Below, one piece after another: positions 682 through 4,516 of a stretch of DNA of 4,516 bases (the stretch's first letter is position 1; every line of letters begins with the position of its first letter). Position numbers and translations under genes: made by a program. Where the stretch lies: the IMG/VR virus record IMGVR_UViG_2713896791_000013. One strand, written 5' to 3'. The DNA comes from a virus. Taxonomy: Duplodnaviria; Heunggongvirae; Uroviricota; Caudoviricetes. The notes beneath the pieces were generated by a model that did not search any database, had not been told where the DNA came from, and was given only the letters and a program-made list of their open reading frames with translations.

Positions 682-1562
682 GAAAAGATACCTTCACTAA
701 AAATATTGGTGCATGTCGCGCTTTTCACAGTTCTATTAGTACAGGTGCAGGGAACTGGACAACGGCACAATTGATTGAATGGCTGGATTCTCAAGGGGCA
801 TTCAATCACCCATACTGGATGTGCAAATGTTCATGGTCATACGGCAATAATAAAATTATAACCGATACTGGCTGTGGAACTATTCATCTTGCAGGTTGCG
901 TTGTTGAGGTTATGGGTAATAAAGGTGCCATGACCATCCGTGTAACAACGCCAAGCACTTCCACCGGTGGCGGAACCACTAATGCGCAATTTACGTATAT
1001 AAACCACGGTGGAGATTACGCACCAGGCTGGCGGCGTGACTACAGTACCAAAAATCAGCAGCCTGCATTTGCTTTAGGGCAGACAGGAAGCACTGTTGGA
1101 AATGACAAAGCTGTTGGATGGAACTCAATTAGTGGCGTTTATAATGCGACTATTGGTGGAGCATCAACATTGATTCTTCACTTTAATATGAATGCGGGGA
1201 GTTGCCCTGCTGTTCAGTTCCGTGTGAATTATAAAAATGGCGGTATTTTTTATCGTTCAGCGCGAGATGGTTACGGATTCGAAGCTGACTGGTCAGAATT
1301 CTACACCACAACACGTAAGCCATCAGCGGGAGATGTTGGTGCATATACCAAAGCAGAATGTAATTCACGATTTATTACAGGTATTCGATTAGGTACAAAA
1401 TCGTCAGTGCAAACATGGAATGGTCCTGGTTGGAACGATAAATCTGGTTATGTTGTTACTGCCTCAATCAACTCAAATAAGGACGAACTTATTGATACAA
1501 CTCAGGCAAGACCTGTGCAGTATTGTATCAATGGCACTTGGTATAACGCGGGAAGTATTTAA
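3..1562 (+). CDS. Tail fibre protein, C-terminal portion, variant A (5'-partial). Shared region is encoded in IR-L; variant-specific receptor-binding domain from 682.
   Basis: Long ORF ending at TAA 1560..1562. The track's 'M' at 48 is a TTG codon, and the frame has no stop back to nt 3, so the gene starts upstream of the window. Contains the fibre-like repeat motif GNA.TAT.L.TA..INGV.FDGS twice. Followed 2 nt later by a chaperone gene. Confidence 0.85.
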
Positions 1563-1564
1563 TT

Positions 1565-2098
1565 ATGCAGCATTTGAAAAACATCAGATCCGGAAATCCA
1601 AAAACTGTTGAACAATATGAATTGACGCGACAATTCGGTGTTGTCTGGTTGTATTCTGAGGACGATAAAAACTGGTATGAGGAACAAAAGAACTTTCAGG
1701 ATGACACTATAAAAATTGCTTACACATCAGATGGAATTATTGTGGCTATAGATAAAGACGTATCTACAATAAATCCAGAAGGTTTAAGCGTTGTTGAGGT
1801 TGCTGACATTACTGCAAATCGCCGTGCTGACATTTCGGGTAAATGGATGTTCAAAGATGGCGTAGTGATAAAGCGAACTTATACCGAGGAGGAACAGAGG
1901 CAGCAGGCAGAGAATGAAAAACAAAGCCTGTTGCAACTTGTCAGGGATAAAACCCAGCTATGGGACTCACAGCTACGGCTGGGTATCATTTCAGACGAGA
2001 ATAAACAAAAATTAATCGAGTGGATGCTCTATGCGCAGAAAGTCGAATCTACAGACACCTCCAGCCTGCCAGTAACGTTTCCCGAACAACCAGAATGA
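1565..2098 (+). CDS. Tail fibre assembly chaperone (Mu U / P1 U / Tfa family), cognate to variant A
   Basis: 177-aa ORF with ATG at 1565, 2 nt after the fibre stop, and a GGGAAG Shine-Dalgarno-like sequence at 1550..1555. N-terminus MQHLKNI..GN.KT.EQYELT...W.YSED.KNWYEE is recognised from memory as typical of enterobacterial phage tail-fibre assembly proteins. Paralogous to the 2126..2653 ORF. Confidence 0.85.
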
Positions 2099-2125: not shown

Positions 2126-2653
2126 TTACTCTGGTTTTTGTGGCCATTCTGGCTTTGCCGTATCCACGCGGCTGACCAGAACGCTGTAGCGTTCCCAGGC
2201 TTCCAGTCGTGTACGTTCCTCATCTGTTGCCATATTCAGCCTGACAGCGCGCTCCAGTGGCTGAATAACGCTTTCCGCATCGGAAAGTAACGCGGCCTTT
2301 TGTGATTCGGCCTGTTGTTGCTGTTCTTCTGCCGTATAAATCCGTTTAACCACAGCTCCGTCCTTAAACATCCACTTACCGGAATCATCGGCCCGACGAT
2401 TGGCTGTTATATCGGGGACTTCAACAACGCTAAAGCCTTCAGGATTAAGTGTGGAGGCATCTTTAGTGATGGCTACAATAATATTATTTTCATCGTAAAC
2501 AATCTTTATTGTGTCTGGCTGAAAATTCTTTACCTCTTCATACCAGTTCTTCCCGTCTTCAGAGTAAAGCCAGATAACTCCGTGCTTCTTTGTTAACTCA
2601 TACTGCTCCGGTGTTTTAGCATTACCAATTTTTATGTTCTTTAAGTGGATCAT
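2126..2653 (-). CDS. Tail fibre assembly chaperone (Mu U' / P1 U' / Tfa family), cognate to variant B
   Basis: 175-aa ORF on the minus strand, with its ATG (2651..2653) 1 nt after the variant B fibre stop (2655..2657). About 74% identical to the 1565..2098 product over the first ~123 residues (counted by hand); the last ~55 residues are divergent. Confidence 0.85.
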
Positions 2654-2654
2654 A

Positions 2655-4514
2655 TTAAACGCTCGCTACATTATACCAGGTGCCATTTATATATTTTTGA
2701 ACGGGTCTGTAATAAACGCCAGCTATATTATCGGCAGAATTGGACCCTGTATCCTGAACATTTATACCAGACAATACATGACCTGAAGGGCACTGGAAGT
2801 TCCATGTTTGCCAGTTGTTCACACCATAATATTGCTGTGAGCCAAGCCGAACATCTTTCACATATCGGGAATCAATGTTACCCCAGTTGCTTGGTTGTAT
2901 CTGACCGTTTACAGCAAATATCACCGAGTTATCTGTATTTCGCTGACTATAGAAATGCCAGCCTGAATCATCACCAAGCTCTGCAACAGTTGGTCTTGAC
3001 GAATTTCCCCACAAGTTAAATGATGCATTACGGGCAGCGGTATTTGCACTTGAAAGTGTGAAGAACTTACTTTCCCCAGCCTGAATACCCTTTAATGATC
3101 TTGCTGAACCATTTATAAAGCGGAATACATGCACACCATTAGCATAAGCATCCAGCACCCCATCACCATTTTGTTTAAACCCGGTATCGTTATCTCCTAA
3201 AACTATTGAATTTCCACCCAGGGCATTAGCCGTTCCAATCCCCAGATTTCCGCTAAAAATGGCATTAATACCGAATATTGAGTGAGAACAATAAAACCCT
3301 CGCCCATTGTTAAAATCCAGAATGGCTTGTGCGTTCGTGCTTTCTGTCGCGGGATTAGTTGCTCCCCACTTATATGTTGTTTGACCGACGGTATAATCCT
3401 GAGTTGGAACAATAACCGTTAGCCCTTCTTCAGCAGAAACCCGCACAGGAAAAGCCCTGCCTTCAACGTAAAAAACGCTGCATACATCATCTTCTTTAAG
3501 GCTTGTTACAATGGAATGGATTGCGCGCTCATTAGTCTGATACGTCGAAAAATAACCTGCCGCATATGAACCACGATCAGTCCAGCCACCAGGCATTACC
3601 ATTCCATTGAATTCGCAGTTATTCATTTCGTAATTACCACCGGCAGATGTGGTCGTTATAATCACTCTGGAAGCCAGCTCGCCAGTGCTGCCTGTGGAAC
3701 GCTGGAAAATAACTGGATACCACTTTCCACCAACAGCATTAGACGGCGCGTTAAATACGTACTGCCGCATTCCTTTTTTCTTATCCACCTCGCCTTTGCT
3801 GTAAACATTAATGTTACTCAGGAAGCGATCTTTATCAGGAATATCCGCGCCGTTCTGGTTTTTCTGCAATGATCCAGCGGCTAGTTCTACGGTTTGCTCA
3901 AGATTTAAATTTTCAGCCGTTAGCTCAATGTTTTTAGAACCATCAAACGAAACACCGTTAATAGTGCGCGCCGTCTGCAATCTGGTCGCCGTAGCAGCAT
4001 TGCCGGAAGTATCCTGATCCCCTTTGGCATTGACGCCGGGAATTGAATCTTTTGACGTATAGACCTGCGCCCATTCAGACCAGTTGGCAGAATCAGTATC
4101 CCGCCGCGAACGGATATGTACGGGCGCATGGGCACCGCTCGTGCCACTCCAGCCAATGAATAACTCACCTTCGCCAGCAGCGGTGGCACCTTTAAGGTGA
4201 AGCACATTGCCATAGGGGGAAGGGTAGCCATTGTTGTATGCCTCATACAGCTGAATCCCGGATGTTCCCTGTGCATTCGCCTCCAAGGCCGTTACGCGAC
4301 CGCGCGATACCAGAGTATTGATATTAATGTCACCAGAACCATCGAACCTGACGCCATTAATGTTTATGGCTGTTTTCAATTTCGTCGCGGTGTCGGCGTT
4401 CCCTGTCAGCGCCCCGGTGATCCCGCCGTTGAAAGTCTGGCGCGCACTCCATGTGTTAGCCGTGCTCAACAGGGGGATCTTTTCACCGCTGGTACCGAGT
4501 TCTCTTAAACCAAG
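2655..4514 (-). CDS. Tail fibre protein, C-terminal portion, variant B (5'-partial). Shared region is encoded in IR-R; variant-specific domain 2658..3835.
   Basis: Long minus-strand ORF ending at TAA (complement of 2655..2657). Identical to variant A through residue P211 of the track translation, then unrelated. Frame is open to the window edge; the track start at 4469 is TTG. Variable domain is about 100 aa longer than A. Confidence 0.85.
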
Positions 4515-4516
4515 GT
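3836..4516. repeat. Right inverted repeat (IR-R), 681 bp, mirror of IR-L
   Basis: Same evidence as IR-L; position p on the left corresponds to 4517-p on the right. Confidence 0.9.
4500..4516. promoter_or_regulatory. Partial crossover site for a serine invertase (right), inverted relative to the left site
   Basis: Top strand reads TTCTCTTAAACC-AA-GGT at 4500..4516. The core dinucleotide is AA here and TT at the left end, the inverted orientation needed for inversion rather than deletion. Confidence 0.6.

Follow-up and report, generated by a model that had tools for sequence, protein, structure and literature searches.

The C-terminal motif shared by two alternative fibre tips of a putative invertible phage cassette as a probable chaperone-docking hairpin

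Overall organization of the locus

The window, by which we mean the whole stretch of viral DNA that was analysed (4516 nt), carries two alternative sets of a tail-fibre tip and a chaperone gene. As seen from the ORF layout, the two sets lie between the arms of a long inverted repeat and are oriented convergently. The features of the window are listed below, with variant A on the plus strand and variant B on the minus strand.

1–695, unstranded: left arm of the inverted repeat (695 nt, 99% complementary), the constant shared part of the fibre gene
ending at 1562, plus strand: fibre ORF of variant A, with a 177-aa ORF downstream
1359–1559, plus strand: terminal tip module A, 67 aa, with the motif as its last part (delimited by BLASTP of A versus B; matches residues 434–503 of 5YVQ_A)
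1509–1559, plus strand: 17-residue C-terminal motif of variant A, followed by the stop codon at 1560–1562 (from the translation; nearly identical to the end of Mu S', 8JU3)
1560–1567, plus strand: stop-start junction A, TAATTATG, with 2 nt from the fibre stop to the chaperone ATG
1565–2098, plus strand: predicted chaperone A, 177 aa, Mu U' type (Caudo_TAP, 122.6 bits; 5YVQ_B, E = 9e-62)
~1565–1909 and ~1910–2095, plus strand: N-domain and divergent C-domain of chaperone A, respectively (delimited by the A/B divergence)
2102–2121, unstranded: hairpin terminator separating the convergent chaperone genes (a palindrome conserved in the A/B alignment)
2126–2653, minus strand: predicted chaperone B, 175 aa, Mu U / P2 G type, with the N-domain at ~2309–2653 (Caudo_TAP, 128.5 bits)
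2651–2657, minus strand: stop-start junction B, TAATATG, with 1 nt from the fibre stop to the chaperone ATG
2658–2708, minus strand: 17-residue C-terminal motif of variant B, with the stop codon at 2655–2657 (from the translation; aligns to the end of Mu S, 5YVQ)
2658–2876, minus strand: terminal tip module B, 73 aa (matches 5YVQ_A; 98.6% identical to the fibre end of a P2-like phage)
2655–4469, minus strand: fibre ORF of variant B, with a 175-aa ORF downstream
3822–4516, unstranded: right arm of the inverted repeat (695 nt, 99% complementary to the left arm)

Based on these repeats, which enclose two opposed tip-chaperone sets, the window appears to be an invertible tail-fibre cassette of the P1 C-segment and Mu G-segment kind, which would serve host-range switching. 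A megablast search aligned the C segment of phage P1 to 71–74% of the window at ~89% DNA identity, and tip A and both chaperone genes were matched by Mu, D108, SfMu, and P2-like phages. In the P1 annotation, the homologous segment is flanked by cin and cixL/cixR. The present window stops at the repeat ends, and therefore the invertase and the full cix sites are not contained in it.

The shared motif and the terminal tip module

Both fibre ORFs stop directly after the motif, which places the terminal module at the extreme C-terminus of each protein. The earlier note had claimed that the two tips share this ending, and the translations agree exactly at the coordinates listed above, with 12 of the 17 residues being identical. 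Among 17-mer pairs drawn at random from the composition of both tips, the maximum was 7 identities, and none of 200,000 pairs reached 12. The claim that the DNA is also similar at this position holds as well; the quoted strings are found at 1527–1548 and at the counterpart in variant B, and 19 of their 22 bases are identical. In contrast, the tips can no longer be called otherwise unrelated, because the last 67 residues of A and the last 73 residues of B are 36% identical (BLASTP, E = 3e-8). Upstream of the motif, the two modules share two more conserved islands, SR(F/Y)(I/V)..(I/V)RLG and SG(Y/H)V(V/L)(T/S).

The same three islands (RYV.DVRLG, SG.V.TG, and the terminal block) are seen in 101 non-redundant relatives, of which the terminal block is the strongest. 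Conservation peaks in the last 17 columns (2.87 bits per column versus 2.00). The consensus of the motif is R-P-(V/I)-Q-x-x-I-N-G-T-W-Y-N-x-x-x-(V/I)-COOH. In the 101 representatives, Q-14 is invariant, and W-7, G-9, and N-10 are conserved in 93%, 87%, and 85%, respectively, whereas conservation within the motif is lowest at its last three residues.

Tip A is matched by Mu S' (8JU3) with an E value of 2e-168 and by 5YVQ_A with an E value of 2e-4. The last ~90 residues of tip B are matched by Mu S (5YVQ_A, residues 414–503) with an E value of 1e-15. The 5YVQ record is entitled 'Complex of Mu phage tail fiber and its chaperone'. An AlphaFold model of the last 85 residues of B had a mean pLDDT of 72, and its accuracy is limited because it represents a monomer of a trimeric domain. 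In a Foldseek search with this model, the sole significant PDB match was 5YVQ_A, with moderate agreement (probability 1.00, TM 0.51, rmsd 6.8). Motif B is predicted to form a β-hairpin, which consists of a strand, the N-G turn, the strand TWYN, and a tail (pLDDT 78–87). Judging from homology and the predicted fold, both tips appear to carry a terminal module of the Mu S / P2 H / P1 S type. An intramolecular chaperone of the peptidase S74 type was also considered, and it was rejected because no S74 domain was detected by Pfam in either fibre.

Chaperone genes

The ORFs downstream of the two fibre genes both exceed the Pfam gathering threshold for Caudo_TAP (PF02413, 22.1 bits). By family (Mu U / P2 G), they are predicted to be Tfa chaperones with a role in fibre folding. 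Chaperones A and B are 59% identical overall, and the identity is concentrated in the first ~115 residues; the N-domains are ~75% identical. Their full-length alignment to Mu U (5YVQ_B) indicates a two-domain build, and lambda Tfa matches the C-domain only. The N- and C-domains of the chaperones assort semi-independently. The C-domains appear to comprise two old subtypes, which accompany the tip type in most cases, though not in all.

Occurrence in other phages

The combination of the motif at a fibre end with a chaperone gene downstream, which was anticipated in the earlier note, proved to be widespread. We gathered 351 fibre ends from annotated phages and IMG/VR contigs, 346 of which had enough downstream DNA. 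An intact chaperone ORF of 150–215 aa follows 341 of these 346 ends, and the remaining 5 are followed by frameshifted or shortened copies. The chaperone start lies between −4 and +17 nt from the fibre stop, mostly at 1–3 nt, in the first 155 pairs.

A profile built from both modules identified 332 representative clusters (50% identity level, E ≤ 0.001) with proteins of 67–2001 aa, and the module ends the protein at its C-terminus in nearly all of the 150 representatives listed. The pattern RP[VIL]Q..[IV]NG.W is present in 76 of the best 144 of the 332 representatives, and it begins exactly 17 residues before the end in 75 of the 76 carriers. This exhaustive search of representatives replaced a protein search with a short profile, which gave only 36 short partial proteins; a scan of genome contigs gave only 2 loci. 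By tblastn, the module was found in 211 phage records. The matches include P2 gpH, Mu S, P1 S, phAPEC8-like phages, Cronobacter CR8, Pectobacterium phiTE, Rac, Salmonella S144, and Hafnia yong1. A literature search for the motif string gave no match.

The breadth of this distribution bears on a possible contact with the receptor, in which the shared residues would bind a common feature of the LPS core. The module makes up the distal tip, and LPS binding has been reported both for the Mu tip and for its Tfa. However, the same motif occurs in phages of Escherichia, Yersinia, Cronobacter, Pectobacterium, Salmonella, and Hafnia, and it is present on both members of host-range-switching pairs, which are meant for different receptors. 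Because the motif is common to fibres with different hosts and to both host-range alternatives, we rejected a receptor-binding role, which is highly improbable.

Origin of the DNA similarity

The DNA similarity between A and B extends past the fibre stop codon without a break over ~400 nt (~1505–1905 versus 2712–2310, 69% identity). The identity rises from ~45% to 60–80% at ~1505 and collapses after ~1905. This block runs over RPVQ and the stop codon and takes in ~115 codons at the start of each chaperone gene. The synonymous (pS) and nonsynonymous (pN) differences between A and B were calculated by the Nei-Gojobori method for four segments.

Upstream tip, 63 aa before the motif: pS 0.60, pN 0.61
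Motif, last 17 aa: pS 0.86, pN 0.15
Chaperone N-domain, aa 1–115: pS 0.93, pN 0.16
Chaperone C-domain: pS 0.84, pN 0.55

The motif and the chaperone N-domain are two co-conserved pieces, and their neighbours on both sides diverge. The S/S' pairs of Mu and P1 repeat the same pattern of pS and pN. Because the synonymous sites are saturated, the DNA similarity is what remains of amino-acid conservation. The conservation of the DNA between A and B is therefore due to selection at the protein level, and it does not represent a recombination patch.

A role of the motif DNA as a homology anchor for tip exchange, at which breakpoints would gather, had been offered in the earlier note. The saturation of the synonymous sites argues against it, as does the length of the exact matches. 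Within the 403 aligned columns (69% identity), the longest exact runs are 11, 11, and 8 nt. RecA-dependent exchange in E. coli is efficient with an exact match of ~20–30 nt, and a run of 11 nt is below the length needed for efficient homologous exchange.

The positions of recent junctions were determined in gapped alignments of 96 representatives, using pairs whose chaperone-N DNA was 93% identical or more and in which the change point was clear. Of these, 24 pairs fall into the bin at the edge of the motif (−60), and a single lineage (L212) takes part in all of them. This lineage has ~60% identity upstream and 95–99% identity from ~60 nt before the stop through the motif and the chaperone gene, as would be expected of an exchange at the motif. 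A cluster of 46 pairs at the motif edge, obtained in a first ungapped scan, was discarded because it also represents essentially this one lineage. The largest class of junctions, with ~14 lineages, lies at −181 to −240, which corresponds to the start of the 70-aa module, and the remaining recent junctions (~40 lineages) lie farther upstream, out to −570; these lineage counts are greedy upper bounds from a coarse test. The junction positions indicate that recent exchange mostly moves the whole terminal module and the chaperone together. Thus, the breakpoints do not cluster at the motif at the coarse resolution of this test, and the proposed homology patch for tip swapping is not borne out.

Two further observations favour the anchor. 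The megablast matches of Mu-like phages end at 2709–2717, the edge of motif B, but the onset of amino-acid constraint explains this end equally well. The combinations at the cluster level (described below) imply old junctions between the tip module and the motif. On balance, a recombination patch is very unlikely.

Conservation could also act on the nucleotides themselves, if the fibre end were kept for the ribosome binding site (RBS) of the chaperone gene and for translational coupling. The stop-to-start spacing of 1–3 nt in most pairs favours this explanation. Purine-rich strings are located 8–12 nt upstream of both chaperone ATGs, with GGGAAG lying within the last codons of fibre A, and in the Mu record the annotated RBS of gene U falls within the final codons of S. 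However, such a constraint can concern only the last three or four codons, whereas third-codon positions are saturated across the motif, of which the last three residues are the least conserved. A nucleotide-level origin of the similarity thus has very little probability, and the chaperone RBS in the last fibre codons, predicted by analogy with Mu, would be a minor overlapping constraint on a region that is conserved by selection at the protein level.

Covariation of the motif and the chaperone N-domain

The relationship between the motif, the tip module, and the chaperone was analysed in a clustered set of 190 unique fibre-end/chaperone combinations, 41 of which are distinct at the cluster level; the sequences are not independent, and linkage contributes to the covariation. 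The chaperone N-type of Mu, P1, and P2 (at least 60% identity) serves six tip modules, and its motif is near-constant, Q(K.|YC)I.G.(W/Y)YN. Conversely, the B-type tip module occurs with seven chaperone N-types, and the last 17 residues differ each time, AYIQKQVNGVWHNVSRV being one of these endings.

In the collapsed set, the adjusted mutual information (AMI) was 0.55 between the motif and the chaperone N-domain (TfaN) and 0.25 between the motif and the tip module, with a bootstrap 95% interval of the difference (0.00–0.53) that touches zero. In the uncollapsed redundant set, the order was reversed (0.58 for the tip module versus 0.41 for the chaperone N-domain), because A-like and B-like chaperones fall together in one 60% cluster. 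The partial Mantel correlation was 0.57 for the motif and TfaN given the tip, and 0.30 for the motif and the tip given TfaN. Motif positions 1, 2, 3, 5, 7, 10, 12, 13, and −4 track the chaperone, and the last three residues track both. The position-wise covariation displayed no N-to-C gradient of the kind expected from crossovers inside the motif.

Two natural chimeras obey the rule that links the motif to the chaperone N-type. In one of them (L094), an S144-like module carries a Mu-like motif, and the chaperone combines, in one fused protein, an N-domain like that of Mu with a C-domain like that of Rac. In the other (L096), two different modules have the same motif core on both fibres, and both chaperones are of the N-type 'NFK.F..YTP...DWYECQK'. 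Coupling is loose inside the Mu/P1/P2 type, where the K-type motif is paired with A-like as well as B-like N-domains, whereas the YC motif with a B-like N-domain was found in 0 of 63 cases. As a whole, motif variation is tied more closely to the type of the chaperone N-domain than to the tip module. The motif is adjacent to the chaperone gene, and part of the covariation could be linkage, although the tip module is equally adjacent.

Proposed role of the motif

The motif is probably a chaperone-docking hairpin at the C-terminus that nucleates folding. This was one of the roles suggested in the earlier note, and it gains support from the homology to the Mu tip, the adjacent Caudo_TAP genes, the co-conservation, and the covariation established above, from which we infer a direct contact between the motif and the chaperone N-domain. 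The alternative suggestion of a trimerisation element, like a role in folding, probably belongs to this docking mechanism.

In the proposed mechanism, the last 17 residues of the module would fold as a β-hairpin, with the near-invariant Q, N-G turn, and W forming the fold core of the module. The same hairpin may also provide the surface recognised by the N-domain of the Tfa chaperone, whose gene is located 1–3 nt downstream. The chaperone would bind the C-terminal end of each fibre chain so that folding of the trimer begins at the C-terminus, and it may remain on the tip after assembly. A passage of PMC9608196 on the work of North et al. 2019 describes that the N-domain of Mu Tfa binds the distal end of the fibre and stays bound, and that the helical C-domain mediates oligomerisation. 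According to a passage of PMC8174754, three Tfa monomers attach at the tip to the individual chains of the fibre. The two tips of the window would keep one docking hairpin because both chaperones have closely related N-domains.

The hairpin might instead act only as a nucleus of folding and trimerisation, with the chaperone contacting other parts of the tip. Q-14, N-10, G-9, and W-7 are retained even beside very different chaperone N-domains, and this retention of Q, N-G, and W whatever the chaperone type points to a structural role that needs no chaperone. The hairpin is the best-confidence part of the module in the model of tip B, and the published fibre model, as given in a passage of PMC9608196, has assembly starting at the C-terminus, which fits a structural nucleus. 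However, a purely structural role leaves unexplained why positions 1, 2, 5, 12, 13, and −4 track the chaperone N-type and not their own module. It also leaves unexplained the co-conservation of the chaperone N-domain and the motif amid diverging neighbours. We therefore consider it unlikely that the hairpin is a structural nucleus alone, and we favour the docking hairpin.

The docking hairpin may be extended to a more specific and rather tentative proposal. Together, the 17 terminal residues of the fibre and the ~100 N-terminal residues of the chaperone might constitute a separable, co-evolving cassette, in which the released C-terminus is handed off in cis. Because the stop and start codons are 1–3 nt apart and the RBS lies inside the last codons of the motif, the two halves of such a cassette would be made consecutively by the same ribosome. 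The motif subtype (WYN, WYT, or W-I/M-N) might then predict which N-domain is able to fold the tip, regardless of the receptor-binding module. If true, this reading would offer a simple rule for which parts are compatible in engineered chimeric fibres.

That the two host-range alternatives of the window end alike, despite their different receptors, would be explained by their chaperones, whose docking domains are nearly identical. The chaperone N-type and the last 17 residues, taken together, look usable as a predictor of fibre-chaperone compatibility in chimeric fibres and retargeted tailocins. The locus also calls for caution in that short conserved DNA at module borders need not mark recombination sites; here it results from constraint on the amino acids. 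The accepted view of how Tfa assists fibre assembly is unchanged.

Comparison with known systems

The window has the gene order, the stop-start junction of 1–3 nt, the two-domain chaperone, and the terminal motif of Mu. Mu S' (8JU3, Mori et al. 2024) and Mu U' are close homologues of variant A and of its chaperone, respectively. The last ~90 residues of variant B and its chaperone are homologous to Mu S (gp49) and U (gp50/TfaMu), respectively (5YVQ, North et al. 2019). Unlike Mu S, variant B has T4 gp34-type repeats upstream of its last ~90 residues, and its terminal module matches the fibre of a P2-like phage. The inverted repeats also differ from those of Mu, being 695 nt long here, as in P1. 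The inverted repeats of Mu are short.

The C segment of P1 (Sv/U, Sv'/U', and Cin) has the same long inverted repeats around two convergent tip-chaperone sets, and its record annotates it as Cin-invertible with Sv'/U' and S/U. In clear contrast to P1, the tip of variant B is replaced; P1 S ends with RPIQKYINGIWYNVAQV on a module of the P2 H type. The same terminal module, motif, and chaperone family are found in P2 gpH/gpG and in Peduovirus operons, and the fibre end that is 98.6% identical to variant B belongs to the P2-like phage OU784549.1. Unlike the cassette, the P2-like loci that were fetched are annotated with one fibre-chaperone pair each and no second set in inverted orientation.

As in lambda Stf/Tfa and T4 gp37/gp38, the chaperone genes of the window are located directly 3' of the fibre genes. 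Lambda Tfa shares the C-terminal Caudo_TAP domain (46% identity over 56 aa with chaperone B), whereas its N-domain is unrelated to those of the chaperones in the window, and the lambda fibre is an HxH-repeat needle that ends with NIAFNYIVRLA and lacks the motif. Fibres of the peptidase S74 type, such as T5 pb1 and K1F endosialidase, likewise have a C-terminal element that nucleates folding of the trimer from its C-terminus. There, fibre and chaperone are made as one polypeptide, from which the chaperone is cleaved, whereas the chaperone here is a separate protein.

Haggard-Ljungquist et al. and Sandmeier et al. are both said to have described, in 1992, the similarity among the C-termini of P2 H, Mu S, and P1 S and among G, U, and Tfa, and North et al. 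in 2019 reportedly gave the structural basis of the Mu fibre-chaperone complex. A fibre atlas of 2025 infers a requirement for Tfa from a Mu-like C-terminal region (PMC12143355). The observation of a shared ending is therefore correct and belongs to phage biology that was already known, with the docking hairpin as described for Mu. What the present analysis adds is that the DNA similarity is driven by selection, that the breakpoints do not cluster at the motif, and that the motif variants track the chaperone N-type.

Mosaicism of the chaperone genes

The chaperone genes are internally mosaic. In the chaperone gene behind variant A (1565-2098, plus strand), the part encoding the N-domain is divergent from the U′ genes of Mu and P1 (loci L003 and L001; pS 0.71-0.76, pN 0.15), and the C-terminal part is near-identical to them (pS 0.35, pN 0.01-0.02). 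The sequences of other loci point to free recombination of the chaperone N- and C-domains. The P24E6b chaperone has an A-like N-domain and a B-like C-domain, and the chaperone of locus L094 combines a Mu-like N-domain with a Rac-like C-domain.

Within the invertible segment, the stretches that encode the homologous N-domains of the window's two chaperones make up an internal inverted repeat (276 nt, 71% identity):

1636-1911, copy in the A chaperone gene
2307-2582, copy in the B chaperone gene

An exchange between these copies would swap the chaperone C-domains. The level of identity seems too low for frequent exchange.

A P1-like invertible segment with an R gene, a fibre and two convergent chaperones is found in the P1-like contig ABLGHV010000021.1 (L096). 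The endings of both fibres contain the same 10-residue stretch, and both chaperones have a non-Mu N-domain with the motif NFK.F..YTP. The entire putative docking pair, which consists of the fibre C-terminal motif and the chaperone N-domain, has been replaced on either side of a single segment.

Damaged and unusual loci

A frameshifted or truncated chaperone gene stands behind an intact fibre end in 5 of the 346 related loci (IMG/VR contigs L024, L032, L081, L113, and L116). The cause is either error in the sequencing or decay of the prophage cassettes. Among the representative proteins, P0158 (2001 amino acids) matches the terminal module weakly at seven internal places and lacks the usual single match at its end, and P0104 (144 amino acids) appears to be a read-through product in which the end of a fibre is fused to the start of a chaperone.

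Intergenic hairpin and window ends

2102-2121, hairpin with the palindromic sequence AAGGCCCGCTATCGGGCCTT and a T-run after it, in the gap that separates the convergent chaperone genes
1-18 and 4499-4516, window ends ACCTTGGTTTAAGAGAAC ... GTTCTCTTAAACCAAGGT

The A/B alignment shows the hairpin conserved in either orientation, and it is probably a bidirectional terminator. By the Cin/Gin site consensus, the window ends resemble half-sites of cix-type crossover sites. If they are such half-sites, the inversion boundaries would be the exact points at which the window was cut. The 4,516-nt window does not contain the invertase gene.

Variant B tip in P2-like and P1-like settings

The terminal module of variant B (variant B tip region 2658-3830, minus strand) is found with 98.6% protein identity over its last 73 amino acids in the P2-like phage L002 (OU784549.1), where it belongs to a fibre-chaperone operon. 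A closely related chaperone stands behind it in that operon. P1 has a different tip at the position occupied by variant B in the window. This type of tip end and chaperone thus occurs in P1-like invertible segments as well as in P2-like operons.
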